Shown in pieces: positions 48,031 through 64,000 of a stretch of 64,000 nucleotides of DNA (position 1 is its first letter; each line of letters starts with the position of its first letter). The stretch is from the NCBI GenBank assembly GCA_963786435.1, contig CAWAZK010000001.1, forward strand, positions 16,021 through 80,020, written 5' to 3'. A program made the translations under genes and the position numbers. The stretch comes from an uncultured Acidobacteriota bacterium. Its GTDB lineage: Bacteria; Acidobacteriota; Terriglobia; Terriglobales; Acidobacteriaceae. The notes beneath the pieces are model-generated. The model was not told the DNA's origin, ran no database searches, and was given only the letters and a program-made list of their open reading frames with translations.

Positions 48031-49356
48031 CTACTTCCAGCTCCAATCAGGCTGCGAGTTGGAGCCGCTAAAGGTCAACTGTGTCTGCTGGCTGCCATCG
48101 GCCAGCATGGACCAAATCTGGTCCGAGCCACCGCGGGTGGATTGATATACGATGTGGCGCCCATCGGGCGACCAGGATGGAAAGTCGTTGCGTCCTCCAT
48201 CGTGCGTGAGCTGCACCCACTGTCGGCTGGCCACGTCCATGACGTAAATGTCTGAGGCTCCCGGTGCTCCGGGGCCGTAATGGCGAACCCAGGCGAAAGC
48301 GAGGAACTGTCCATTCGGCGACCACGATGGGGAAACCGCATAACCCTGGTCGGTGATTCGTTGCACGTTGGTTCCATCTGCTTCCATGACGTAGATCTGA
48401 GGCAGGCCAGTTCGTCCGCTGACCCAGGCGATCTGCGCGTTGGTCTTAGGGTTCCATACTGGCGAGACATCGGGACCATGATACGCCGTCAATCGCTTCA
48501 GGTTATTTCCATTCTGATCGCAAACATAAATCTCAGGGTCGCCGGTGCGTGAGGATGAAAATGCGATGCGGGTGCCGTCGGAGCTCCAGGCGGGCGATAA
48601 AGTTGTACCTCCGAAGGTCGGGAATTTGACCAGGCGCCCGAGGTCAAGCGACCAGACCGCAATGCTGGGGCCGCCTTTGAAAAACGAAGCGAAAGCGATC
48701 CGCGAATTGTCCGGTGAAATCCGGGGCGAAAGTGAGATGGAGTCGAGACGGGTGATGGAATGCTGCCCCGCGCCATCATAATCCATCGCCCATACTTCCT
48801 TGTGGCCGGTACGATTGCTGACAAAGTAGAGCTTGGTTTCGGCGATTCCCGAGAGTCCACCACCGAGCCGGAAGATAATCTCGTCGGCAAAACGGTGGGC
48901 GATCAGGCGGGCGTTGTCCTCGGTCGCGCTTTCGCGGTACTGCTTTGCCAGCACCTGCGGATTCTGCGCGCTCTTCACGTCAAAAAGCCAGCCCTGTACT
49001 TGCAGGCTCCCACCGTTCACGCTGAGGCTACCGAAAGCCAGCATCGCGGCACTGGGTGGAGCCGCGGCCCAGACGTCGAGATGGGCGTCCGCAGGACCAC
49101 CAATAGCGCCGAGCGGATAGAAGCTCTTGGAAACCATGTCGAAGATACCGGCCTGATACAGGTCATTGAACAGTACGGTATTGAAGGTCTTATCGAGCGG
49201 CGTGGACTGCGGGTCCGCGCTTGCGATCTTGAAGTCGGGCACTGCCAAACGAATCTTTTCACCGCCGACGCCGGTGCCCGTACGAATCCAATCCTGCGAA
49301 ACGGCAGGTAGCACGAGCGCGAAAAATACGGCGGACAGGACTGCAAATCGCTTCAT
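48031..49356 (-). CDS. tolB: Tol-Pal system beta-propeller protein
   Basis: TolB N-terminal domain plus PD40 repeats (SPRISPDNSRIAF, SPAWSSDGTRIAF, SPSWSPNGQFLAF, FPSWSPDGRHIVY). ATG at 49356 lies 7 nt after GGAGAG. Confidence 0.9.
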   Translation of the reverse strand: MKRFAVLSAVFFALVLPAVSQDWIRTGTGVGGEKIRLAVPDFKIASADPQSTPLDKTFNTVLFNDLYQAGIFDMVSKSFYPLGAIGGPADAHLDVWAAAPPSAAMLAFGSLSVNGGSLQVQGWLFDVKSAQNPQVLAKQYRESATEDNARLIAHRFADEIIFRLGGGLSGIAETKLYFVSNRTGHKEVWAMDYDGAGQHSITRLDSISLSPRISPDNSRIAFASFFKGGPSIAVWSLDLGRLVKFPTFGGTTLSPAWSSDGTRIAFSSSRTGDPEIYVCDQNGNNLKRLTAYHGPDVSPVWNPKTNAQIAWVSGRTGLPQIYVMEADGTNVQRITDQGYAVSPSWSPNGQFLAFAWVRHYGPGAPGASDIYVMDVASRQWVQLTHDGGRNDFPSWSPDGRHIVYQSTRGGSDQIWSMLADGSQQTQLTFSGSNSQPDWSWK

Positions 49357-49389
49357 TTCAATTCTCTCCAAAATACTATGGCGCGGCGT

Positions 49390-50259
49390 TCAGCGCCGGT
49401 AATCAAACCAGAATTCCACGGAAACATAACTGCCGCTATATCCCGGCGGCAGCGGGCCGAAGGTGTCAATGCGCTGCAGTGCCCGTACCGCCGACTGATC
49501 GAGCGACGGTATTCCTGACGACTGCTCGATGCGAACGTTGGACGGCGACCCAGAATGCGAGATGTCAAAAGTTACATAAACCCGCTTTGCTGAATCGATA
49601 CTCGGATTTACTTCGCTTTCCCATGCTTGATGAACCTTTCTCGCCACTACGTCCGTGTACCATCCGAAGCGGCTGCCAAAGCTCCCGGTACCACCTTCGC
49701 CAAACTTCAAGCCTCCGGTGCTGCTGCCGCTCTGGAACGTAGTATAGGGACCGGCAACGGGGCCGCCCTCACCATAAGGAACCGTGTTTTCGACCGCTGC
49801 CATCTCTCGCGGTTGAACGCGGGTTGGGGTCGCAAGCGCCGGCTTCTGCTTCGCGGGAGCGCGGCCTGTGACAGGCGCCTCGGGGGTGGCGACCTTTTCG
49901 TGCTTGAGCGGCTTAATTTTGGCTTGCCTGTCAGGAATTGCGATGGCTTGCTTATCTTCTTTTACCTTCGCGGCAGGCGCCGGAATTGATTGCGACAATC
50001 CCTTGTTTTCAGTGGCCAGCACATTTTCTGGTTTGGCGTCGGGATTTGGAGGCAAGGGAATTCCACTGACAAGGTTGGCGCTCATGGCTCCGCCCGGAGC
50101 TGCGCCACTGCCGTTGTTGCCCCAGTTCTCTCCGTGGTGGGAGAGGATTGCGGGAAGGAAGACGATGCAGGCCAGCAGCGCGAGGTGCAGCGCGGTAGAG
50201 GCGGCGAACGACGGCGCCATCGCTTCCTTATGATCGTAGATGTCAGCGTCCAGCGGCAT
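49390..50259 (-). CDS. TonB-family energy transducer in the TolA position
   Basis: N-terminal TM helix, a Pro/Ala/Lys-rich spacer and a TonB_C-like domain (RVYVTFDISHSGSPSNVRIEQSSGIPSLDQSAVRALQRI). Located between tolR and tolB. Confidence 0.75.
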   Translation of the reverse strand: MPLDADIYDHKEAMAPSFAASTALHLALLACIVFLPAILSHHGENWGNNGSGAAPGGAMSANLVSGIPLPPNPDAKPENVLATENKGLSQSIPAPAAKVKEDKQAIAIPDRQAKIKPLKHEKVATPEAPVTGRAPAKQKPALATPTRVQPREMAAVENTVPYGEGGPVAGPYTTFQSGSSTGGLKFGEGGTGSFGSRFGWYTDVVARKVHQAWESEVNPSIDSAKRVYVTFDISHSGSPSNVRIEQSSGIPSLDQSAVRALQRIDTFGPLPPGYSGSYVSVEFWFDYRR

Positions 50260-50677
50260 TGGCTTTCGTAATCAAGGGTTGCGTGACGATGCTTACGTTG
50301 GTGATGCCGGTCTGCTTCACGGCGTCCATCACAGTGGCAAAGGCGCCGAAGGGCACATTCTCGTCGGAGCGGATGAAAATGCTCTGGCCCTGCGGATCGC
50401 GAATCTTCTGATGCAACCGGTCGGAGATTTCGTTGATGTTGATGGGATCGTTGCCGAGATAGACACGCTGATCCTTGTCAATGGTGATAACCAGCCGCTC
50501 CTCGGAAATTTCCTTCACCGTCTTCGTCTTGGGCACCTGAACCTCGATGCCAGACTGGAGCACCGGCGCGGTAACCATGAACATCACCAGCAGCACGAGG
50601 ACAACATCCACGAACGGAGTGATGTTGATCTCCGAGAGTGAAGATTGCGTGCGTCCCTTATTATTTGTAAACGCCAC
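50243..50677 (-). CDS. tolR: Biopolymer transport protein TolR/ExbD
   Basis: SEINITPFVDVVLVLLVMFMV and the ExbD fold, directly downstream of tolQ. Confidence 0.88.
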   Translation of the reverse strand: MAFTNNKGRTQSSLSEINITPFVDVVLVLLVMFMVTAPVLQSGIEVQVPKTKTVKEISEERLVITIDKDQRVYLGNDPININEISDRLHQKIRDPQGQSIFIRSDENVPFGAFATVMDAVKQTGITNVSIVTQPLITKANAAGR

Positions 50678-50686
50678 CGCAGTCTC

Positions 50687-51364
50687 CTATCGGTCGTCGC
50701 CGTTGCGGTCGATGATGTTGAGCAACTCGAGGCTGAAGTCGTCCATGCGAGCGGCAAATACACGAATCTGCTGCAGGAAGAAATTGTAGGCGACCACGGC
50801 GGGAACGGCGGCAAAGAGTCCGGCGGCCGTGGTAATCAGAGCCTCGGAGATGCCGGGTGCCACCGCGCGCAGCGTCGCAGCGCCGGCATCGCCGAGGCCG
50901 TGGAAGGCGTCAATGATGCCCCATACGGTGCCAAAGAGTCCGACAAAAGGAGCGATGGAGCCGGTGGTAGCAAGCCAGGTCAGGCGGCTCTCCAGGCGCG
51001 TAAGCTCCTCGGACGCCGCGATTTGCGTCGCACGCTGCACGGAGAGCGTACGCGGATTCGTCCCGCAGCGCTTCAGCTCTTCAACTGCGCCGTCAAAGAC
51101 AGCAACCAGGGGCGAGGGCTTGAACTGCTCGGAGACAGCGGTGAGTTCCTGCAGACGATTCGCCTTCCGAAAGACGCGGACAAAGCGTCCGCTCTGCGTA
51201 CTGGCGCGGCGGTAGAGGCCGTATTTGGAGAGGATGATCGCCCACGAGAGAAGGCTGAAGGCGAGCAAAATGAAGAGCACGACTTTGGCGACCAAGCCGG
51301 TATTGGAAACCATGTCCAATACCTCTCCGCCCATTGCGAAAGCAAAGAAATTTGTAATCGGCAT
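50687..51364 (-). CDS. tolQ: MotA/TolQ/ExbB proton-channel protein
   Basis: Three TM helices, with the conserved LATTGSIAPFVGLFGTVWGII and APGISEALITTAAGL. Confidence 0.9.
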   Translation of the reverse strand: MPITNFFAFAMGGEVLDMVSNTGLVAKVVLFILLAFSLLSWAIILSKYGLYRRASTQSGRFVRVFRKANRLQELTAVSEQFKPSPLVAVFDGAVEELKRCGTNPRTLSVQRATQIAASEELTRLESRLTWLATTGSIAPFVGLFGTVWGIIDAFHGLGDAGAATLRAVAPGISEALITTAAGLFAAVPAVVAYNFFLQQIRVFAARMDDFSLELLNIIDRNGDDR

Positions 51365-51712
51365 CCTTATCTCATTGGAGCAGGCGCTGAAATCGCATCA
51401 CTGCCGGATCAAACTATGCGCCGTGATGCGAATCCTTTTTTATTATAGTCAGCTCTGTAGGCCTTTGTGGGGGAGGTTTGTACATATCGAGCAAACCCGA
51501 ATATAGATAGATACTTTTGGAACTGGATTGAGGGCGATGACCTCATGAGTGTACGTTGCAGTGTGAACTTCGCCAACTCCTGCAAGTTGTGGTAGCTGCG
51601 ATGGATGCGCGCGATTATCGGAGCGAGGGTTTCAGTAATGGCTTTTTAGCGTAGGGCGCATTGGCCCTGCCGTGTTATTCTCGCCGGGAAAACTCTAACG
51701 AACGGGTGCCGA

Positions 51713-53396
51713 GTGCTCAGGGAATTGCGGGTAGAAAACTACGCCGTTATCGACAACGTGGTGGTTGAGTTTGGGGCTGGGTTGAACCTGCTGACCGGCG
51801 AAACCGGCGCGGGCAAGTCCATTCTGATCGACGCACTGGCGCTGCTGTTGGGCGAGAAGGCATACAGCGATGTGGTGCGCCACGGCGCGGAGAAAGCCAC
51901 GGTCGCCGCCGTTTACGAGAGCGACGATCCGGCCATCGCTCAGGTGCTAGAGGAGAACGGAATCGACGGCGCTGGCACGGAGATCATTCTCCGCCGCGAC
52001 ATTGCAGTCAACGGCAAGGGCCGCGTCTTTATCAATAACCAGCCCGCAACTGTGGCCGTGCTGAAGGCCCTAGCGCCTCGCCTGGCAATTGTTCACGCGC
52101 AAAATCAAGCCATTCTGATGTTTGATCCTCCTGAGCGTTTGGCGCTGCTGGATGCCGCCGCAGGCTTGAGCCTGAATGCCGTTGCGGAGGCTTATGCAAA
52201 GTGGAGAGAGGTTGCGCGGCGGATTGCGGAGTTGGAAAAAGGCGAGCAGGAAAAGCTGCGTCTCGTCGATCTGTGGAAGTTTCAATTGAAGGAGATTCGC
52301 GAGGCCAACCTTACGGCGGGAGAGGATCAGAGGCTCGAAGCGGAAAAGCGCGTATTGGCTAATTCCGAGCGAGTATACGGTGCGGCGATGGGCGCATTCG
52401 ACGTGCTGTATGAGGTGGAGGAGTCGGCGATTGCGCGCCTTGGTGCCGCAGCCAAGCACCTGGAAGAGTTGTCGCGCTTCGACGATTCGTTCAAGGAAGC
52501 GCTGAGCCAGCTTGAAAGTGCGCGCATTACGGTAGAGGACGTTGCCACGACTCTGCGCGACTTCGCCGATGGCATGGATGCTTCGCCCGAGCGCCTCGCC
52601 GAGGTGGAAGATCGCCTGGCGGTTCTCGACAAGCTCCGCCGCAAGTACGGCAAGACTTTGGAGGATGTGCTGGCCTTTGAGCAGGACATTGCGGGAAAGC
52701 TCAACGACATTGAAAACAAGGATGAGCTGCTCGCAACTCTGCGCAAGGAACTGGCGTGTGACGACAGCCAAGTATCTGGACGAAGCTCGCTATTTGAGTA
52801 AGCAGCGCTATGAGATAGCGCGGAAACTTGAGAAAACGGTTGAAGCGGAGATCAACGATCTGGCGATGAAGGCGAAGTTCAAGATCGAGGTTTCCGGTTC
52901 GGACGAGGAGGGCAACTGGAGCGCCTCGGGCTTTGACCAGGTGGCTTACCTGATCTCCACCAATCCGGGGGAGCCGATGGGGCCCATCGAAGAGATCGCC
53001 TCTGGCGGAGAACTCTCGCGGGTGATGCTGGCGCTGAAGGCCAGCGTGGAGGCCGGCCGCTCGAACAGCAAGGGTTCGGATGCACAGCGTTCACTGGTTT
53101 TCGACGAAATCGATACGGGCATCGGTGGCCGCGCTGCGGATGCCGTGGGCAAAAAACTGAAGGCGCTATCGACAAGCAAGCAGGTTCTCTGCATCACCCA
53201 TCTGCCGCAGATTGCGTCGTTTGCCGACCGGCATTACCTGATCGAGAAACATGAAAGCGCTGGGCGCACGAAAACAACGGTTCGTCCCTTGAGTCCCGAA
53301 GAGCGGCGCAGCGAGATTGCGCGGATGCTGAGCGGGGCCAAGGTCACCGAGGCTAGCCTGCAGAACGCCGAGCAACTGATTCGGGCAAACGCCTGA
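51713..53396 (+). pseudogene. recN: DNA repair protein RecN with one +1 frame disruption at about 52757
   Basis: Walker A (LTGETGAGKSIL) at the N-terminus; GGELSRVMLALK and LVFDEIDTGIGG at the C-terminus. Frame 1 reads ...LRKELA and the next frame continues VTTAKYLDEARYLSKQRY... after skipping t52757. Confidence 0.92.
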
Positions 53397-53657
53397 GTGG
53401 TTCGCCTCTGTTTACCGTAAGGGCACTCTGTGGAACTATCCCCGGCCCGTCTCACCTGCTAGAATAAGGAGAGATCAACGACGCAGCTTGTGCCCCTAGG
53501 CAAGGCGCTATTCGCCTATGGTCGGGCTGCTGGATGGTGGTTTCCGCACTTCTATGGGTTGTAATGGTGGGGAAGTGTGCGGGGCCATAGACTTACAAGA
53601 TGTGATGTGGCTCGTGTGGCATCTAGGTGCTGGCGGGCTTCATCTGAATCGAAGCGA

Positions 53658-54631
53658 ATGACCGAAACCAAAACTCTTCTGCTGTTAAAGCCCCGTGGAT
53701 TCTGTGCGGGCGTGGTGCGCGCCATTGATATTGTGCGCATTGCCCTGGAAACCTTCGGCCCGCCGATTTACGTCCGCAAGGAAATCGTACACAACAAGTA
53801 TGTGGTCGAGGACCTCAAGGGCAAGGGCGCCATCTTTGTGGATGACGTGGAGGAAGTACCCAATGGCGAGCGCGTGATCTACAGCGCGCACGGTGTTGCG
53901 CCATCGGTACGCGAAGCCTCCAAGTTGCGAATGTTGCGCGTCATTGACGCGACCTGTCCGCTGGTGACCAAGGTTCACGTGGAAGCGATCCGCTTTGCCA
54001 AGGATGGCTACTCGCTGATCCTGATCGGGCACCTCAATCATGATGAGATTGTCGGCACACTCGGCGAGGCTCCTGAGGTGACCCAGGTGGTCAGTAACCC
54101 GGAGCAGGTGGCGCGCATCGTTGTGCCGGACCCGGATCGTGTCGCTTACCTGACACAGACAACGCTTTCGGTCGACGAGGCGAAGGACATTATCGAGGCG
54201 CTCAAGGCGAAGTTCCCCAACATCCGCGGCCCGCAGGCGCAGGATATCTGCTACGCCACGGAGAACCGTCAGGTGGCAGTAAAGAACGTTGCCGAGCAGG
54301 CAGACCTGGTGCTGGTGGTTGGATCGCCGAATAGCTCGAACTCGAATCGGCTTGTCGAGGTAGCGCGGAAATCTTGGCACTAAATCGTTTCTGATTGATA
54401 CCTGTCAGGACATCGACGAGAAATGGTTGGAAGGCGTAAAGACCGTCGCTCTTACTGCGGGTGCTTCGGCGCCGGAAATACTGGTTCAGGAAGTGATCGC
54501 CTTCCTTGGGAACAAAGGCTTCTCGAATATGCACGAGACTTGAAGTGATGCCGGAGCATGTACGATTTGCGCTGCCTCCGGAGATCGTGGCCGCGATCTC
54601 CGCGGCTTCCGAAACACCAGGGGTGGGGTAA
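53658..54631 (+). pseudogene. ispH: 4-hydroxy-3-methylbut-2-enyl diphosphate reductase with two +1 frame disruptions (about 54375 and 54538)
   Basis: [35 protein letters not shown] and [55 protein letters not shown]...NMHE follows in the next frame, and LEVMPEHVRFALPPEIV... in the third. Stop at 54629-54631. Confidence 0.9.
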
Positions 54632-54637
54632 GAATCC

Positions 54638-56583
54638 ATGGAAGCAAGTTCGGCGCATTCGACTTCGATTCGATTTGGAAAAATTGCAGGTCTGGCTGCG
54701 CGGCTCAATAGTTCGATTCAGGCGGCGCAGGAAGTTCCTGTTTGCCCGGCAGCACGAAGATGGCTGGTGGTGCGGCGAATTGGAAGCCGACACTACGCTG
54801 GAATCCGATTATATTTTTCTGCACACCGTTCTCGGCACTCGCGACGAGCGCCGCTTTCAGCAGTGTGCAGACGAAATTCTGCGTCATCAGAATGAGGACG
54901 GCGGTTGGCCGATTTACCAGGGTGGCCCTTCGAACATCTCGGCCAGCGTGAAAGCGTATTTTGCGCTGAAAATGTGCGGCTATTCGCCGGACGATGAGCG
55001 CATGGCGCGCGCCCGCGAGCGCATCCTCGCCATGGGCGGCGTGCCCGCCTGCAATACCTTCAGCAAGATCTATCTCTGCGCCCTTGGGCAATACGATTAC
55101 GATGCGGTCCCGGCAATTCCGCCCGAGATTGTGCTGTTTCCCAACTGGTTCTGGTTCAACATCTACGAGATCTCTTCGTGGTCGCGCGCGATTCTGATTC
55201 CGCTTTCGATCTGCTACGCGAAGAAGCCGTTCAAGAAAATTCCCGACGAGTGGAATATCGACGAGTTGTTTCCGCATGGGCGGCACGGCAGTTCGCTGCG
55301 CCTGAAATGGGATAGCAAACTGATTGGCTGGCGGAATTTCTTCCTCGTTCTGGACCGTATGGTTCACGCCTTCGAGCGCGTGCATGTGCGCCCTCTGCGC
55401 TCGATTGCATTGAAAGCGGCGGAAGAAGTGGATGCTGGAGCGCTTCGAAATGAGCGATGGACTGGGAGCGATTTATCCTTCGATCCTGAATTCGATCATT
55501 GCGATGCGCTGCCTCGGCTACTCGCTCGATGATCCGCAGGTGATTCGCGCTCTCGACGAATTTGAAAAGCTGGGTATCGAAGAAGGCGATCGCTTCCGAA
55601 TGCAGCCCTGCGTCTCCCCCGTGTGGGATACCGCCTACGCCCTGTTTGCCCTAGGTGAGAGCGGCGTTGAAGCGGCGGAGCCGCGCATGGTGAAGGCCGC
55701 CGAGTGGATGCTCAAAAAGCAGAATCGCCGCAAGGGCGACTGGTCGGTTAAGGTCCCAATGCAGAACCCGGCGGCTGGTATTTCGAACATAACAATGAGT
55801 TCTATCCCGACGTGGACGACACCGCGCAGGTGCTGCTCGCACTGAACCACATTGAAACCAAGGATGCGCGATTCCAGAGCGAGTCGGTGCAGCGCGGAAT
55901 TCAGTGGGTGCTGGCCATGCAGTGCAAAAATGGCGGCTGGGCGTCCTTCGATAAAGACAACGACCGCATGGTCTTCCAATACGTTCCCTTCGCCGATCAC
56001 AATGCCATGCTCGATCCGGCGACGGTTGATATTACCGGACGCGTGCTGGAGTGCCTTGCCGCGCATGGCTTTACCCTGGAAGATAAACCGGTCATGCGCG
56101 CCATCGATTTCATCCGCAAGGAACAGGAATCCGATGGCTCGTGGTTCGGGCGCTGGGGCGTCAACTACATTTACGGCACCATGTGCGTGCTGCGCGGTCT
56201 GGACGCGATTGGCTTCGATAATCACGACGCGATGATTCAGCAGGCGACCGAGTGGCTGCGCATGATGCAAAATCCCGACGGCGGTTGGGGCGAGACCATC
56301 GGCTTCTTACGATGACGTAAATCTGAAGGGAATGGGTTCCAGCACCAGTTCGCAGACTGCATGGGCGGTGCTTGGATTGATGGCGGGCGGAGATTACCGC
56401 TCGGAATCGCTGGCGCGCGGAATCGCTTACCTGCTGGATCATCAGCAAGCCGATGGCGGTTGGAGCGAGATTCCCTACACAGGCACGGGATTCCCCCGCG
56501 TCTTCTACCTGAAATATCACGCCTATCCGTGGTATTTCCCGCTGATGGCGCTGGCTAAGTACGCTCGCAACCAGGGAGAGTAG
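54638..56583 (+). pseudogene. shc: Squalene-hopene cyclase with four frame disruptions (about 54734 +1, 55428 +1, 55757 -1, 56304 +1)
   Basis: QW and DxDD-region motifs are spread over four frames: ARQHEDGWWCGELEADTTLESDYIF, HQNEDGGWPIY, WMLERFEMSDGLGAIYP, NAEPGGWYFEHNNEFYPDVDDTAQ, MQCKNGGWASF, EQESDGSWFGRWGVNYIYGT, MQNPDGGWGE, SYDDVNLKGMGSSTSSQTAWA, HQQADGGWSE. Confidence 0.93.
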
Positions 56584-56657
56584 AGTAAAACGTCCGCGGT
56601 TTCAGTAATTAAGCGCAGCCTGGAAAGGCTGCGTTCATACTTTCGGAGAGATCGATT

Positions 56658-57674
56658 TTGAAAGCTTTTGTAACCGGAGCAACAGGGTTTGTGGGGAGTC
56701 ACGTGGCACGCCTGCTGGCAGAGCAGGGAGCCGACCTGCGTCTCCTGGTACGGGCCGGAAGCCGGCAGGAAAACCTTGAGGGACTGCGCGCGGATCTTGT
56801 CACCGGCGACCTTACCGATCCGGCATCGCTGCGCAAGGGAATGGACGGTTGCGAAGCAGTCTTTCATGTGGCCGCCGATTATCGCCTGTGGATTCGCGAT
56901 CCGAAGCCGATGTATGCGGCCAACGTGGACGGCACCGCAGCCGTGATCGAGGCGGCCCATGCCGCGGGCGTGCGCCGCACGGTGTACTGCTCCTCGGTGG
57001 CGACGCTTGGATTTGGCTATGACCGCAAGGCGGTGAACGAAGAGACTCCGGTTGACGTTGCCGACATGATCGGTCACTACAAACGCTCCAAGTATTTGGC
57101 CGAGCGCAAGGCTGTGGAGCTTGCGGCCAAGGGCGCTGAGGTAGTGATCGTCAATCCCAGCACTCCGGTTGGTGAGCAGGACATCAAGCCGACGCCGACC
57201 GGGCGCATCGTGCTGGATTTCCTGCTGGGAAATTTTCCCGCCTACATGGAAACCGGGATGAACCTGGTGGATGTTCACGATGTTGCGCGCGGGCATCTGC
57301 TGGCATTCGAAAAGGGACGTCGCGGCGAGCGCTATATCCTGGGCGGAGAGAACCTCACGCTGAAGCAAATTCTCGACCTTCTGGCGGAGTTGACCGGCTT
57401 GCCATCGCCCACAATGAAGGTTCCGCACTCGGTGGCAATGGCTTTTGCAGCCTTTGACCAAACCTTCAACGGATACTTGAGGAATCGCGAGCCAAGAGCA
57501 ACAATCGAAGAGGTTCGCATGGGTAAGAAATTTATGTGGGTGGATTCCGCCAAGGCGGAGCGTGAGCTGGGATACACGCACGGCGCGGTAGGCGAGGCAC
57601 TGGCGCGTGCGGCTCGGTGGTTTGTGGCAAAAGGCTACGCGCCGGCTTACGAGGCGATGTGTCCAACCGCATGA
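56658..57674 (+). CDS. hpnA: Hopanoid-associated NAD-dependent sugar epimerase/dehydratase-family protein
   Basis: Intact 338 aa with VTGATGFVGSHV, FHVAADYRLW and YKRSKYLAE. Position directly after shc. TTG start. Confidence 0.88.
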   Translation: MKAFVTGATGFVGSHVARLLAEQGADLRLLVRAGSRQENLEGLRADLVTGDLTDPASLRKGMDGCEAVFHVAADYRLWIRDPKPMYAANVDGTAAVIEAAHAAGVRRTVYCSSVATLGFGYDRKAVNEETPVDVADMIGHYKRSKYLAERKAVELAAKGAEVVIVNPSTPVGEQDIKPTPTGRIVLDFLLGNFPAYMETGMNLVDVHDVARGHLLAFEKGRRGERYILGGENLTLKQILDLLAELTGLPSPTMKVPHSVAMAFAAFDQTFNGYLRNREPRATIEEVRMGKKFMWVDSAKAERELGYTHGAVGEALARAARWFVAKGYAPAYEAMCPTA

Positions 57675-58415
57675 GCATGAATGCAGTCGAGTTCGGATTT
57701 GTGGCGGCGCTGGAGAGAGAGGTTTCCGGCCTGGTACGGGGCTGGAGCCGTTTTAATGTGCGCACGCCGAACGCGCAGCGAAAAATCTACTCGCTCAGAG
57801 AATGCCGTGCTGATCTGCGCTGGCACTGGGGTTGACCGGGCGTATACCGCTACGAGAGCTCTCATTGAGAAGTGCTCGCCGAGGGTGATAATTTCTATAG
57901 GGTTTGCTGGTTCGTGTGTGCCAAATCTGCACCCGGGTTCGGTGGTGGTTCCGGCGAATGTGTTGGAGGCGGCTACAGGTAAAAGCTTTCGTTGTGCTTT
58001 CGGCTGCGGGCAGTTGGTCACGCTGGATCGAGTGGCGGGCAAAGCTCTGAAGCAGGATGCTTTCGCCCGTTTTGGCGCATTGGCCGTAGATATGGAAGCC
58101 GCCGGCGTTGCCGCTGCAGCAGCCGAGTGTCGCAGGGAATTCGCGGCGATCAAAGTGATTTCCGACGACGCGGAGGAGGATCTTGAGTTCCTTTCAAGAT
58201 TCGTGAAGCCGGAGGGCTTCGAGACCGGGCGTTTCATCGCGCACATTGCGTTGCGCCCCGGACTGTGGCCGAGCGTGGCGGCATTGAAGCGAAACAGTAA
58301 ACTGGCAGCCGCGGCTCTGGCGAGCGCGGTGAGCGATTGCACAAGTGACTGGCGGAGCTTTTTCGGCCAAGCACTGCGATGCTGCAGCACAAGTTTGATG
58401 AGAGAGGGTTGTTGA
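57671..58415 (+). pseudogene. hpnG: Hopanoid-associated nucleosidase/phosphorylase (adenosylhopane nucleosidase) with one +1 frame disruption in 57781-57800
   Basis: ATG at 57671 overlaps the hpnA stop (ATGA). The N-terminus MSMNAVEFGFVAALEREVSGLVRGW... is in one frame; ENAVLICAGTGVDRA...SIGFAGS...AVDMEAAGVA (PNP_UDP_1-like) is in the next. Confidence 0.75.
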
Positions 58416-58419
58416 AAGA

Positions 58420-59542
58420 ATGGAAGTTACTCCTAAAACGGGGGCCGCTCTACCGGCACTGGATTCGATTCCTGACCGGATGCTGGCCGCCGTTTATTAC
58501 GGACAGAATGATATGCGGCTGGAGACGGTTTCCGTACCGAGGATCGGTCCGGGCGAACTGCTCGTGCGCATTCATAGCTGTGGTATTTGCGGCACGGATC
58601 TTAAGAAGATCTCAACGGGTTCACACTCGGCCCCGCGCGTCTTTGGCCATGAGATGGCCGGGGTGGTGGTGGCCCGTGGCGCTGGCGTCACCAGGTTTGC
58701 CGAGGGAGACCGCGTAATGGTCTTCCACCATATCCCCTGCGGCAACTGTTATTACTGCGAGCGCAAAGTGTTCTCGCAGTGTCCGGTGTACAAACGGGTG
58801 GGCACCACGGCGGGCTTCGGCGAGCCATCCGGCGGCGGCTTCTGCCGAGTACATCCGGGTGATGGACTGGATTGTCGAAAAGGGCGTAATTGCGATTCCG
58901 GATTCGGTAAGTTTCGATCAGGCTTCCCATATCGAACCGGTGAATACGGTGTGGAAGGGAATTGAGACGCTGGCGGTTAGCAGGGCGAAACCGTGCTGGT
59001 GATCGGGCAGGGGCCCATCGGGTTGATGCTGGGCAAATTGGCCCAACGTGCAGGTGCAAACGTAATTACTTCCGATTTGTTCCCGCAGCGGCTTACAATT
59101 GGGGAGCGCTACGGATTAACCCAGTCGATCGATGCCTCTCGAGTGCGATGTCGTGCAGGCAATTCGCGAGAGAACCGAGGGCCGTGGCGCGGACGCAGTG
59201 ATCCTTGCCGTAGGCGGCAGCTCGCTGATCCGGCCGGCGATTGATGCGGCGCGTTTCGGCGGGCGGGTGCTGTTATTTGCGCAGACGGTTCGGGGTGAGG
59301 TCGTGATCGATCCTGCCTCGGTTTGTGTGGACGAGAAAACGTTACTTGGTTCCTATAGCGCATCGGTGGAACTGAATGAGGAAGTGGCTCAATTTGTCTT
59401 CAGCGGCGAGATGGACCTGGCCGGGCTCTACAGTCACCGGTTCCCATTGGCTCAGTCGCTGGAAGCTTTGAGATTAGCTGCGCATCCGCAGCCGGACACG
59501 ATGAAAATCGCGATTCAGCCATGCAGCGTCTGGGAAGGATAG
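58420..59542 (+). pseudogene. Zinc-dependent medium-chain alcohol dehydrogenase (sorbitol/threonine-dehydrogenase-like) with three frame disruptions (about 58843 +1, 58982 -1, 59140 +1)
   Basis: CGICGTDL, GHEMAGVV and the structural-Zn CGNCYYCERKVFSQC are in frame 1. AEYIRVMDWIVEKGVIAIPDSVSFDQASHIEPVNTVWKGI, GETVLVIGQGPIGLMLGKL and ECDVVQAIRERTEGRGADAVILAVGG... lie in shifted frames. Confidence 0.85.
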
Positions 59543-59546
59543 CAGA

Positions 59547-60596
59547 GTGAACGGACAAATGACGGCAGCAATCCTCTACGGCAAAGAGGACGTAAAGATC
59601 GAGCGGGTACCGATTCCAGAGTTGGAGAACGGTGAGGTACTGATTCGCGTTCAGGCCGCGTTGACCTGCGGCACCGATCTTAAGGTGTATCGCCGCGGCT
59701 ACCATGCCAAGATGATCGTTCCACCGGCGCTGTTCGGCCATGAGTTTGCGGGAGTGATCGAGAAGGTTGGCCCGGAGGTCAAGAACTTCAAGGTGGGGCA
59801 GCGCGTGGTCGCGCTCAACTCGGCTCCCTGCGGACAGTGCTTCTTCTGCAAGAAACATCAGGAGAATCTGTGCGAGAACCTGCTGTTCAACAACGGCGCT
59901 TATGCGGAGTTCATTCGCATCCCGCGTCGCATTGTTGAAAACAATATGCTGGTGGTGCCCAAGGAGATCAGCTTTGAAACCGCAGCACTCACTGAGCCTC
60001 TGGCATGCGTGCTGCGCGGGTTGCATGAAACCGGGGTGAAGATCGGTGAGACGGTTACGGTGATCGGAGCCGGACCCATCGGCCTGATGTTTATGCAGGT
60101 GGCCGCTATCATGGGCTGCGACGTAATCGCAGTTGTGAAACACGATGAGCAGGTTCTCACGGCGAAGCACGCCGGAGCCAAGAAGGTAGTGGTGTTTCCC
60201 AAGGTAGCCGATCCGATTGAGGCAGTGCGCGATCTGACTCCGGAGCGCCGCGGTTCCGACGTAGTGATTGAAGCCGTCGGCCGTCCCGAAGCCTGGGAGT
60301 GGGCGATCGACATGGTGCGCAAGGGCGGAACAGTCAACCTGTTCGGCGGATGCGCCAAGGGAACGCGGGTGCAATTGAATACCGAGCGCCTGCACTACTC
60401 GGAGATTACACTGAAGGCTACATTCCATCACACTCCCGATACGGTGCGCCGTGCCTTCGCACTGATTGCCGAGCGCAAAATCAAAAGTGCGGACTACATC
60501 ACTGGGGAAGCACCTCTCTCCAAACTGCAATCCGTGTTGCGGGAAATGCTGACACGCGGCGGCGAGATCAAAACCGCCATCATTCCTGGACACTGA
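59547..60596 (+). CDS. Zinc-dependent medium-chain alcohol dehydrogenase (intact paralogue)
   Basis: 349 aa with CGTDLKVY, GHEFAGVI, CGQCFFCKKHQENLC and the Rossmann motif VIGAGPIGLM. A GTG start lies 7 nt after GGAAGGA. Confidence 0.9.
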   Translation: MNGQMTAAILYGKEDVKIERVPIPELENGEVLIRVQAALTCGTDLKVYRRGYHAKMIVPPALFGHEFAGVIEKVGPEVKNFKVGQRVVALNSAPCGQCFFCKKHQENLCENLLFNNGAYAEFIRIPRRIVENNMLVVPKEISFETAALTEPLACVLRGLHETGVKIGETVTVIGAGPIGLMFMQVAAIMGCDVIAVVKHDEQVLTAKHAGAKKVVVFPKVADPIEAVRDLTPERRGSDVVIEAVGRPEAWEWAIDMVRKGGTVNLFGGCAKGTRVQLNTERLHYSEITLKATFHHTPDTVRRAFALIAERKIKSADYITGEAPLSKLQSVLREMLTRGGEIKTAIIPGH

Positions 60597-60609
60597 TAAG
60601 GAAAGACGA

Positions 60610-61631
60610 TTGACGTCATTTGTGCCCAGCACTCATTCAAACGGCGCCGGTTCATCCGGCGCGAATCAAAATTCCAGCGACATCGAAACTCTGCTGGCTC
60701 GCGGATGGGCAAGCCTGCCGCCGGAGTACGCCATTCCTGCGGTTGCGCCCTCGCTGGATGAGGCGCGCAATTACTGCCGGAGGCTGGCTACTTCGCATTA
60801 CGAGAATTTTTCGGTTGCGACCTGGTTTTTGCCCAAGCGTCTGCATCAGCATTTCTTCAATGTTTATGCTTATTGCCGCATCTCCGACGATTTAGGTGAT
60901 GAGGTTGGAGATACCCGCGTCTCGCTCGCGTTGCTTGACCGCTGGGAGCAGGAGCTAAACGCCACCTACAGCGCGCTTGAAGGGACTGCTGCAGGCGCGA
61001 CGGCATCCCGTCTTCGTCGCGCTAGCCGAGACGATTCGGAGTTGCGCGATTCCCAGGCATGAGTTCAGCGATCTGCTCATGGCATTCCGTCAGGATCAGG
61101 CGGTCACGCGCTATGAAACATTCGACGAACTGCTTGGCTACTGCAGAAATTCTGCGAACCCCGTCGGCCACCTCGTGCTCTATCTCTGCGGATACAGGGA
61201 TGAGGAACGGCAGCAGCTGTCTGACTTCACCTGCACGGCCCTGCAACTGGCAAATTTCTGGCAGGACGTTTCGGTGGACTGGAAGAAGGGACGCGTCTAT
61301 CTGCCGCTCGAAGATCTTCGCCGCTTCGGCGTGAGTGAAGCTCAGATTGCTGAGGGCTGTTTCAACAGTCAGTTCCGCGAACTTGATGCGCTTCGAGGTG
61401 GAGCGGGCGCGTCAGTGGTTCGAGCGCGGACTTCCCTTGGTGAAGATGGTGAACCGCTCGCTTGCGCTGGATCTCGAACTGTTCAGCCGGGGAGGGTTGG
61501 CGATTCTTCAGGCGATCGAAAAGCAGGATTTCAACGTATTGGCGCGACGCCCCAGTTTAAGCCGCTTCCGTAAGGTTGAGTTGGTCTTCCGCGCGCTGGC
61601 CGGCCGGATCGCATTAGGAAGAGTGGGATGA
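60610..61631 (+). pseudogene. hpnC: Hydroxysqualene synthase (squalene synthase-like HpnC) with two +1 frame disruptions (60970-61003 and about 61385)
   Basis: SHYENFSVATWFLPKRLHQHFFNVYAYCRISDDLGDE in frame 1; HPVFVALAETIRSCAIPRHEFSDLLMAFRQDQ...LQLANFWQDVSVDWKKGRVYLP in frame 2; MRFEVERARQWF...LELFSRGGLAIL in frame 3. Confidence 0.85.
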
Positions 61632-62568
61632 GCGACACTGGTATCAGCGACACCAAGAAACATGCCACGCTGCAACTGACCACAGCCTACAGCGTATGCC
61701 GCCATATTGCGCGCTCCTCGGCGAAGAATTTCTATTACGGTTTCATGTTGCTGCCTGCTCGAAAGCGCAATGCACTCAGCGCCGTTTACGCTTTCATGCG
61801 TCATGCTGACGATCTGAGCGATGATCCGGGCATGACGCTGCCAGAGCGGAGGATAAAGCTCAGCCGAGTTCATCGAGATCCTATCGGCGCTCGTTTGAAA
61901 GCGGTCGCACCGATGATCCGGTCTTCCTTGCACTGCGTGACTCCCAGCAGCGATACAGCATTCCGATGGAACTGCTTGAGCAACTGGTGGCAGGAACGGC
62001 GATGGACGTCTGCGAGGGTGGCGAGCAGAACGGTACCCCGCCGAACGATGCCCCGCGAGTGGTCTACACCAGTTTCGATGAGCTTTACAACTATTGCTAT
62101 CACGTCGCGTCGGTCGTGGGTCTGGTCTGCATTCGCATCTTCGGCTATCGCGACCCTGTTGCCGAGCAGTATGCCGAACACCTCGGCATCGCCTTCCAAC
62201 TCACCAATATTTTGCGCGATGTCAAAGAAGACGCAGCCATGGCTCGCGTTTATCTGCCGCAGGAAGATCTTGACCGCTTCGGCGTAAATCCTGCCGAGCT
62301 AGGCTCGGGTGTTCCCATGGAGAAGTTGCGTCCGCTGCTGGCGTTTGAGGCCGAGCGTGCGCGCGAGTACTATACTTTCGCCGACCGCCTGCTTCCTCTG
62401 ATTGATGAGGTCAGCCAGCCAGCGCTCTGGGCGATGGTGGAGATCTATCGTGGCATCCTCGACCGAATTGAGCTCAAGCAGTTTGATGTGTATTCCGAGC
62501 GCATGCGCCTCTCGCTGGGCGATAAACTGAAAATCCTGGCCAAAGGATTCGGGAAGAGACTATTGTGA
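61628..62568 (+). pseudogene. hpnD: Presqualene diphosphate synthase (HpnD) with probably two +1 frame disruptions (about 61862 and 61896)
   Basis: SAKNFYYGFMLLPARKRNALSAVYAFMRHADDLSDD in frame 1; AEFIEILSALV in the second; ESGRTDDPVFLALRDSQQRYSIPMELLEQLVAGTAMDV...YCYHVASVVG...FQLTNILRDVKEDAAMARVYLP in the third. The start overlaps the hpnC stop (ATGA). Confidence 0.85.
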
Positions 62569-64000
62569 GCGCCACGGTTGTACCGCGCGAAGCTGCACCG
62601 CGCGAAACAGAAGCGAAGCTTCCGAGTGTTGGCGTTATCGGTGGTGGGCTCGCCGGACTCTCAGCCGCCTGCGCACTGGCCGACGCCGGTTACAAGGTGA
62701 CGCTCTTTGAGCGCAGAGCATTTCTCGGTGGCCGTGCATCCTCCTATGAGCATCCCGGCACCGGCGAGGTAGTGGACAACTGCCAGCATGTGCTGCTGGG
62801 CTGTTGCACCAATCTGCTGAATCTTTATCACCGCCTCGGCGTCGAGGACAAAGTGCGCTGGTACAAGCGCATCACGTTCATCGAGCCCGGCGGCCGCTCC
62901 AGCTTCATCGAAGCATCGTCTCTACCCGCCCCCTTCCACTCCGCGCTTTCGTTTCTGCAATACAAGTTGCTTTCGCTGCGCGATAAGCTCGGCATCGCCC
63001 GGGCCTTGGCTGCGTTACTGGCCGGAGTGCCGGAAGACAGCAGCGAGGACTTCCTCTCCTGGCTGCGACGCAAAGGGCAAACGCAAGCTGCCATTGACCG
63101 GTTCTGGGCTCCGGTGCTCATCAGCAGTTTGAATGAAGACCTCGATAAGTCTTCGGTCAAGTATTCCGCGATGGTGTTCCGTGACGCTTTTCTCAAGTCC
63201 GCCGAGGCCGGAAAGATGGGCGTGCCGACGGCTCCGCTCTCAGAAATTTACGGAGTGGCCGAAGAATACATTCGCTGCACGAGGCGGCGAAGTTCTGTTG
63301 CGCAGCGGAGTCGATGCCGCGTCGTTTGGTGATGGCGTCAACGGCAACGTAACGCTGCGTTCCAATGATCGCGATTTCATCTTCGATTACGCGATCAGCG
63401 CGATACCGTTTCATGCGTCTCGGGCGCATCTTGCCGCAATCAGCGGCGAGTGAAGCACTGCAGCAGAAGGTAAGTCATCTCCGGACGGTGCCGATCACCG
63501 GAATCCACCTCTGGTTCGATCGCGAAGTGACAGAGCTGGAGCACGCTGCATTGCTGGATCGCAACATTCAGTGGATGTTTCAGAAATCGAAGATCCTCAC
63601 GAGTTCTGCCGCACATTCTGCAGACCAGTCCGCCAACGGCGGCGGCAGCTATCTGGAACTCGTGGTGAGTTCGTCGAGACACCTGCTGGAGATGGGCCGC
63701 GCGGAGATTATCGAACTCGCGATGAAAGAATTGGCAGAGTTCTTTCCCAGCCGCTCGCAATGCAAAGCTCGTGAAGGCGACCGTGATTAAAGAAGTTCAC
63801 GCGACCTTCGCGCCCGCACCTCTGAGCGAGGAATTCCGCCTTTGTCCTTCGACTCCCTGGCCGCGGCTATTTCTAAGTGGCGATTGGACTGCGACAGGTT
63901 GGCCTTCCACAATGGAAGGCGCGGTGCGCGCCGGCTATCTGACGGCAGAAGCTCTTTCCAAAGCTGCCGGAAATGCACAGCAATTCATCATTCCGGATCT
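62565..64000 (+). pseudogene. hpnE: FAD-dependent hydroxysqualene dehydroxylase (HpnE) with three +1 frame disruptions (about 63276, 63418, 63761); the 3' end lies outside the window
   Basis: A GTG start overlaps the hpnD stop (GTGA). GVIGGGLAGLSAACALADAGYKVTLFERRAFLGGRA is the dinucleotide-binding fold. Later segments ARGGEVLLRSGV..., LGRILPQ...ITGIHLWFDREV... and AKLVKATVIKEVHATFAP...LFLSGDWTATGWPSTMEGAVRAG each lie in the next frame. Confidence 0.85.

Follow-up and report, generated by a model that had tools for sequence, protein, structure and literature searches.

Hopanoid biosynthesis gene clusters of cultured acidobacterial strains were described by Sinninghe Damsté et al. in 2017 (Front Microbiol 8:968; PMC5462960), who distinguished a "cluster C" composed of hpnA-hpnG-ug1, found in subdivisions (SD) 1, 2 and 3, and a "cluster A" composed of ug2-hpnC-hpnD-hpnE. 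In that work ug1 is a Zn-dependent alcohol dehydrogenase of ~370 aa and ug2 is a Zn-binding alcohol dehydrogenase of ~350 aa that was found in every SD1 and SD3 acidobacterium but not in Chloracidobacterium, and the function of both is given as "not established". We analyzed a 64,000-nt stretch of DNA (the window; contig CAWAZK010000001.1, assembly GCA_963786435.1) from an uncultured soil Acidobacteriota bacterium of the Acidobacteriaceae, in which two alcohol dehydrogenase (ADH) genes, adh1 and adh2, lie between hpnG and hpnC. Their products, 373 and 349 aa in length, are in exactly the positions of ug1 and ug2, respectively; the gene pair is already known under those names and is not a new system. 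Absent from the 2017 paper, and new here, are the conservation of the two genes as a coupled module, the linkage of this module to hopanoid genes across phyla, including its occurrence outside the Acidobacteria, and the opposite cofactor signatures of the two enzymes. By their conservation, adh1 and adh2 appear to encode two distinct, functional Zn-dependent medium-chain dehydrogenases. The likeliest single assignment, to which we give roughly one chance in three, is that the pair acts on the side chain of C35 hopanoids, with ADH2 as an NADPH-dependent reductase of ribosylhopane.

Both proteins contain the Pfam domains ADH_N (PF08240) and ADH_zinc_N (PF00107), which score 92.6 and 84.8 bits, respectively, in ADH2 and extend across all three fragments into which adh1 is split in the window. 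The initial annotation of this locus, which placed two tandem Zn-dependent medium-chain dehydrogenase/reductase (MDR) genes between hpnG and hpnC, was therefore correct as to family and position, and the genes are indeed adjacent, but they are not duplicates of each other: ADH1 and ADH2 are 32% identical, and a recent tandem duplication is rejected on that ground. The zinc ligands are C54/H77/E78, plus E172, in ADH1 and C41/H65/E66, plus E150, in ADH2, and the structural cysteines are C107/C110/C113/C121 and C95/C98/C101/C109, respectively. The catalytic Cys/His/Glu, the structural Cys and the glycine-rich loop are at least 98% conserved among 95 ADH1 and 112 ADH2 orthologues, the conserved GxGxxG loop reading GQGPIG in ADH1 and GAGPIG in ADH2. 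E172 and E150 are the conserved Glu of an "EP" motif ("IEPVNT" in ADH1, "TEPLAC" in ADH2), a residue whose role near the zinc is known from structures of sorbitol dehydrogenase (SDH) and threonine dehydrogenase (TDH).

The closest PDB structures are the uncharacterised 4EJ6, the ketose reductase 1E3J, archaeal TDHs, SDH and butanediol dehydrogenase (E ~1e-36 to 1e-40, 22-30% identity). Foldseek searches with AlphaFold models of ADH2 (pLDDT 72.6) and of the ADH1 orthologue P0492 (pLDDT 86) recovered the MDR fold, with TM ~0.8 to TDH, ketose reductase and 4EJ6, and for both models returned generic MDR neighbours only, without a clue to the substrate. Members of the SDH/TDH branch, such as SDH (1PL6), 1E3J, TDH (2DFV/3GFB) and 4EJ6, share with ADH1 and ADH2 the two-domain fold, the Cys-His-Glu zinc site, the "EP" Glu and the Cys4 structural zinc, but ADH1 and ADH2 are only 22-30% identical to them, fall below all equivalog cutoffs and are embedded in a lipid-biosynthesis operon. 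In NCBIfam, ADH2 scores 177.5 against Tdh (TIGR00692; cutoff 458) and 161 against IolM (NF041097; cutoff 450), and the intact ADH1 orthologue of locus L009 scores 173 against IolM (cutoff 450) and 151.5 against Tdh (cutoff 458). The Tdh, IolM, idonate-, galactitol-phosphate- and sorbitol-dehydrogenase equivalogs were rejected on scores below the curated cutoffs; the automatic JGI annotation is "L-iditol 2-dehydrogenase". ADH1 and ADH2 are members of the Zn-dependent MDR superfamily, and their sequence features place them in its polyol/threonine-dehydrogenase branch.

The two enzymes differ in predicted cofactor type. The contrast lies where the second Rossmann strand ends: ADH1 has D219 there, a residue that matches the NAD-binding Asp of 4CPD in alignment and is at least 98% conserved in the 95 orthologues. 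In ADH2, V197-K198 align with A199-R200 of the NADP(H)-dependent ketose reductase 1E3J, and K198 is an invariant Lys in the 112 orthologues. Because of these contrasting Asp and Val-Lys signatures, read in the light of established MDR structure-function knowledge, we infer that ADH1 is NAD(H)-type and ADH2 NADP(H)-type.

We compared the neighbourhoods of the pair at 80 Terriglobales/Acidobacteriota loci from a genome scan, in which ADH2 is 76-98% identical, and at more distant loci obtained from a metagenome scan seeded with protein P0123, a search seeded with an Omnitrophota ADH1-like protein, and context look-ups (denominators vary by feature, and "other" loci are those from the metagenome scan and the look-ups). 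Gene order is uniform across the 80 loci. adh1 and adh2 are adjacent at 76/77 Terriglobales genome loci and 29/33 other loci, and in the relatives' loci they frequently overlap by 4 nt. hpnA lies upstream at 72 of 73 Terriglobales and 15 of 26 other loci, hpnG lies directly upstream at 65/73 and 14/26, and hpnC/D lie downstream at 76/77 and 28/36, respectively. At least one hpn gene is present at all 80 Terriglobales loci and at 34 of the 43 others, a strong association with hopanoid genes. The synteny with hpnG on which the initial annotation relied is thus real within the Terriglobales, but it holds for only 14 of 26 loci elsewhere, where the pair also occurs without hpnG. Pairwise distances among ADH1 sequences track those among ADH2 sequences across 36 loci (r = 0.94). 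Such a correlation fits inheritance of the two genes as one unit, but it would also arise between any genes passed on vertically.

The order of the surrounding genes varies among more distant relatives. Locus L081 contains hpnA-hpnG-adh1-adh2-hpnCDE without ispH-shc upstream; L167, from an Acidoferrales metagenome-assembled genome (MAG), reads Lip_A_acyltrans-LpxD-x-ispH-shc-hpnH-hpnA-hpnG-adh1-adh2-hpnCDE; and adh2-hpnCD occurs without adh1 at L094, L103 and L107-L109. Neighbour joining groups the hopanoid-linked ADH2 sequences in a single clade whose sister clade is, by sequence names, from Omnitrophota. The Omnitrophota module is adh1-adh2-Peripla_BP_2, in which the third product has a class III substrate-binding-protein fold and the genes mostly overlap by 4 nt (L168, 9001-11979; L169, 10001-12953; L170, 10001-13149; L087, 8970-11966). 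In L168 it lies divergently beside a complete squalene/shc/hpnH cluster, fused hpnCD-hpnE-ispA-dxs-shc-hpnH. A profile search from distant representatives, meant to escape the Terriglobales, returned the same family, and in a search of representative sequences only three clusters at least 50% identical to ADH2 were present outside its own cluster. The next family out, 43-49% identical to ADH2, is a lone gene without hpn context. At its loci (L116-L164; for example L153, L145 and L128), where the neighbouring proteins look cyanobacterial, a family 4 glycosyltransferase lies directly upstream in ~15/32; its top NCBIfam match is N-acetylglucosaminyl-phosphatidylglycerol synthase, under the cutoff. 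Together, these data indicate that the pair is inherited as a closely linked, often overlapping unit, that it is conserved across at least three phyla, and that it is embedded in hopanoid clusters throughout the Acidobacteriota and lies beside one in Omnitrophota.

In the window, the pair occupies the middle of a plus-strand run of hopanoid genes:

53658-54631, plus strand: ispH (tblastn with the L009 IspH, 87% identity, 3 high-scoring segment pairs; 2 frame breaks)
54638-56583, plus strand: shc, squalene-hopene cyclase (tblastn with the L009 SHC, 87% identity; 4 frame pieces)
56658-57674, plus strand: hpnA, hopanoid-associated short-chain dehydrogenase/reductase (SDR; "sugar epimerase"; NCBIfam TIGR03466, 486 bits, cutoff 367.65)
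57671-58415, plus strand: hpnG-like nucleosidase/phosphorylase (PNP_UDP_1; one frame break near 57795)
58420-59542, plus strand: adh1 (ug1), Zn-dependent MDR dehydrogenase, 373 aa after indel correction
59547-60596, plus strand: adh2 (ug2), intact Zn-dependent MDR dehydrogenase, 349 aa
60610-61631, plus strand: hpnC (NCBIfam HpnC on fragments, and tblastn; 2 frame breaks; TTG start)
61628-62568, plus strand: hpnD (NCBIfam HpnD, and tblastn; 1 frame break)
62565 to the window end (64000), plus strand: hpnE (NCBIfam HpnE, 254.5 bits on the first fragment; 3 frame breaks)

The four segment pairs of shc alternate in frame, and those of hpnE cover residues 15-464 of the 476-residue query, with the gene continuing past the end of the window. 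The top NCBIfam match of the hpnG-like product is the HpnG model, at 75.6 bits and under the cutoff of 187; the intact HpnG of L009 (8132-8869) scores equally low (~75 bits), and HpnG is the fastest-evolving gene of the cluster, 30-67% identical across loci at which ADH2 is 77-98% identical. The tight packing described in the initial annotation is present, with 4-nt overlaps at hpnA/hpnG (ATGA), hpnC/hpnD (ATGA) and hpnD/hpnE (GTGA), and the gaps around the pair are 4 nt (hpnG-adh1), 4 nt (adh1-adh2) and 13 nt (adh2-hpnC). The adh2 start codon is GTG, with GGGAAGGA just ahead of it. This spacing of 4-13 nt implies that adh1 and adh2 are co-transcribed and co-expressed with the hpn genes of the hopanoid operon; in a consensus scan, promoter-like and terminator-like sites were no more frequent than in shuffled sequence.

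Upstream of the cluster (1-50 kb), no further hopanoid genes were found among the ten large open reading frames (ORFs) scanned, which include an RND efflux protein, a histidine kinase, an HtrA-like protease, an SDR, MoeA and a TolB-like protein. A Tol/Ton-type block (48031-51364, minus strand) that consists of a TolB-like PD40 protein, a TonB/TolA-like ORF, and ExbD/TolR-like and ExbB/TolQ-like ORFs lies directly upstream of recN, and the same block precedes the hopanoid cluster in L081 and L172. Scans of the whole window (1-64000) for tRNA and tmRNA genes found none, and no Rfam family reached the gathering threshold. In the window's clade only ~75 nt separate shc from hpnA, with no hpnH there, whereas in ~28/80 loci hpnH lies between these genes, in many together with a ~145-aa "ug3" (L015, 5989-6987; L024, 5307-6979; L064, 5490-7042); the HpnH of these relatives scores 432 bits against the NCBIfam HpnH model, and ug3 has no NCBIfam match. 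Other neighbours of the cluster in relatives include an LpxL-like lipid A acyltransferase (L081, 14338-16273; L084, 7313-8212; L167, 129-2115), joined by LpxD in L081, L082 and L167. Conjugates of hopanoids with lipid A are known from Bradyrhizobium. HpnJ (TIGR03471, 787 bits) is encoded on the opposite strand ~2-3 kb downstream of hpnE in L166 (16508-17971, minus strand), and a similar B12-binding radical SAM gene is present at the HpnJ position in L172 (17036-18508, minus strand).

In the window sequence, adh1 is interrupted by three frame disruptions and adh2 is intact. Alignment of the L021 orthologue to the window mapped the adh1 breaks to three single-base indels: a T inserted at 58843, a C lost at 58978/58979 and a G inserted at 59143. 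Correction of these indels yields a protein of 373 aa that is ~90% identical to that of its nearest relative. If adh1 were a decaying pseudogene, adh2 alone would be functional in this organism, a reading for which the three disruptions are the evidence and which we consider very improbable. The out-of-frame segments all still encode conserved protein, and the ratio of nonsynonymous to synonymous substitution rates (dN/dS) is ~0.07 for corrected adh1 and 0.02-0.05 for adh2, each against three relatives. Moreover, the 12.3 kb from 51677 to 63998 contain 16 frame breaks, which affect 8/10 genes (recN 1, ispH 2, shc 3, hpnG 1, adh1 3, hpnC 2, hpnD 1 and hpnE 3), and with a Poisson rate of ~1.3 breaks per kb neither three or more breaks in the 1.1-kb adh1 (P ~0.18) nor none in adh2 (P ~0.25) is remarkable. 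All ten genes are unbroken in L009, from a short-read MAG, and several long-contig MAGs among the relatives carry the same type of damage. We reject a pseudogene on this error density, the dN/dS of 0.07 and the intact relatives. With 8 of the 10 genes in the stretch affected, the breaks in adh1 are uninformative on decay; they look like uncorrected long-read assembly error, and the contrast that had been drawn between one broken and one whole copy reflects sequencing error and has no biological meaning. The pervasiveness of the breaks calls for caution with any gene call in the window. In the public collection there is also an apparent ADH-ADH "fusion", P0436 (586 aa; L172, 10001-11761), which probably arose when a frameshift error merged adh1 with adh2, because the neighbouring hpn genes in L172 are all fragmented too; P0271 (585 aa) and P0013 (488 aa) are likewise over-long and may have the same cause.

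The C35 hopanoid pathway contains a step to which such enzymes could be assigned. We found no paper that assigns the conversion of ribosylhopane to bacteriohopanetetrol (BHT) to any gene, in the dehydrogenase family considered here or in a different one, and none that proposes ug1/ug2 for this step or assigns them a function. Reviews of 2025-2026 still list the enzyme as unknown, in agreement with the initial annotation, and a 2026 review draws the step as non-enzymatic. HpnA has been proposed for this reaction, but Burkholderia does not need it to make BHT and Rhodopseudomonas lacks it altogether (PMC5462960). Like the ADH pair, HpnA is an NAD(P)-dependent oxidoreductase encoded in the same operon, and it is the rival published candidate for the missing reduction; unlike the pair, it belongs to the extended SDR superfamily and is widespread in hopanoid producers. 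Cell-free reduction of ribosylhopane by extracts of Methylobacterium organophilum was reportedly observed by Bodlenner and colleagues in 2015, and is said to depend on NADPH. That activity is the reaction proposed here for the pair, known as an activity without a gene, and its NADPH use would match the predicted preference of ADH2.

We propose that ADH1 and ADH2 act on the polyhydroxylated, ribose-derived C5 side chain of the C35 hopanoids generated by HpnH and HpnG. ADH2, the NADP-type enzyme, would use NADPH to reduce ribosylhopane, as its open-chain aldehyde or keto tautomer, to BHT, and ADH1, the NAD-type enzyme, would catalyse another, NAD-linked redox reaction on that chain, perhaps setting or editing its redox state or stereochemistry. 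In favour of the proposal are a pathway step that still lacks an enzyme, the location of the pair downstream of hpnG at most loci, and the predicted NADP-type site of ADH2, and it is open and testable because the recent reviews still list the enzyme as unknown. Its extension to a module that supplies the missing ribosylhopane-to-BHT step or steps in Acidobacteriota, and probably in hopanoid-producing Omnitrophota, with ADH2 as the NADPH-dependent reductase and ADH1 as its NAD-linked partner, is one that we put forward more tentatively. The module would be a lineage-specific, dedicated solution, with other phyla using unlinked enzymes.

Several observations weigh against this proposal. The polyol/threonine-dehydrogenase branch typically takes secondary alcohols and ketoses, not aldose aldehydes, the reduction of which is usually the job of aldo-keto reductases; the initial assignment to a polyol/sorbitol-dehydrogenase-like type stands as to branch, but the chemistry of that branch weakens the case for aldehyde reduction. 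One reduction requires one enzyme, yet two with opposite cofactor types are conserved. No hpnH is present in the cluster or anywhere in the 64-kb window. The linkage appears to be to the hopanoid cluster generally, with hpnCDE tied to the pair no less closely than hpnG: adh1-adh2-hpnCDE occurs without hpnA/hpnG in Pseudacidobacterium (L083/L084), L111 and L173, and L174 reads ispH-hpnA-adh1-adh2-hpnD-shc, with no hpnG. At four Omnitrophota loci (L087, L169, L170 and L171) the pair has no hpn gene within ±10 kb, and in Verrucomicrobia (L165) it has no hpn neighbours within ±9-10 kb; the neighbours at these hpn-free loci are a Peripla_BP_2 protein, arginine-succinyltransferase-pathway genes or glycogen phosphorylase. 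Finally, alphaproteobacterial BHT producers have no such ADH near their hpn clusters and Chloracidobacterium lacks ug2, so the pair cannot be a universal ribosylhopane reductase. The initial suggestion that these genes are reductase candidates is partly supported: Zn-dependent MDR enzymes are encoded in a hopanoid operon whose pathway has an open slot, but a linkage specific to hpnG looks unlikely.

The conservation of two enzymes with opposite NAD and NADP signatures throughout the family, encoded by tightly paired genes that often overlap by 4 nt, is also what would be expected if the pair tailored the hopanoid side chain in some way other than as a ribosylhopane reductase. This is possible, if unlikely, and carries weight comparable to that of ribosylhopane reduction. 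In one version, ADH1 with NAD+ would oxidise, and ADH2 with NADPH would re-reduce, C-34 of BHT via a 34-keto intermediate, a couple that would invert C-34 and so interconvert 34S and 34R BHT. C-34 adjoins the terminal CH2OH and is thus the position attacked by sorbitol/iditol 2-dehydrogenases, in line with the polyol/threonine-dehydrogenase type of the proteins, their top structures (ketose reductase, SDH, TDH and butanediol dehydrogenase) and the JGI annotation as L-iditol 2-dehydrogenase. Both 34R and 34S BHT isomers exist, and the literature that we found names no epimerase for them. In the other version the lactol of ribosylhopane would be oxidised to a lactone, ribonylhopane, which is a reported natural hopanoid. 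Against both versions, the case is purely one of chemical analogy, and we found no report of a BHT isomer, keto-hopanoid or lactone from Acidobacteria, in which almost only tetrafunctionalised bacteriohopanepolyols were found by Rohmer degradation, a method blind to C-34 isomers (PMC5462960).

The hpn-free sister pairs in Omnitrophota (L087, L169, L170, L171) and Verrucomicrobia (L165), together with the next family (43-49% identity), a lone gene without hpn context, raise another alternative, that the substrate is a soluble polyol, sugar or amino alcohol unrelated to hopanoids and the pair stays in the operon only through inherited order; the hopanoid-linked loci are mostly from Acidobacteriota, in which vertical inheritance could keep that order. 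We regard this as rather unlikely, for the pair has kept its place in or next to hopanoid genes despite several independent rearrangements, and has done so in at least one further phylum, its 4-13-nt operon spacing implies co-expression with the hpn genes, and ug2 is in all SD1 and SD3 strains and absent from Chloracidobacterium (PMC5462960). If instead the pair served the supply of squalene or isoprenoid precursors rather than side-chain chemistry, one would expect its most persistent neighbours to be hpnC/D/E, shc, ispH and dxs rather than hpnG, as they are: adh2 is adjacent to hpnC/D at 76/77 Terriglobales and 28/36 other loci, adh1-adh2-hpnCDE or adh2-hpnCD blocks exist without hpnA/hpnG, and ug2 was grouped with hpnC-D-E as cluster A (PMC5462960). 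This role is nevertheless improbable, since HpnC, HpnD and HpnE alone suffice to make squalene from farnesyl diphosphate in E. coli, and in SD1, SD2 and SD3 it is hpnA-hpnG that ug1 accompanies, in cluster C (both described in PMC5462960). An active site of the polyol-dehydrogenase type would moreover be a poor fit for farnesyl or squalene-type substrates. No comparable ADH is known from the hpnCDE clusters reported for other bacteria.

The reaction from ribosylhopane to BHT is the sole remaining gap in the core BHT pathway. Most extended hopanoids derive from BHT, as do the C31-C35 geohopanes that are used as molecular fossils. If the pair proved unrelated to hopanoids, the finding would shrink to two ordinary dehydrogenases, and if it edits C-34 instead, BHT stereoisomer biomarkers could be explained. 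If ADH2 and ADH1 do provide the ribosylhopane-to-BHT step, reconstitution of the pathway in a heterologous host would become possible, and BHT production could be predicted from the genomes of abundant soil Acidobacteria. The comparative evidence narrows the choice of protein and cofactor for an assay, and may thereby turn a long-standing gap into a simple expression-and-assay experiment.

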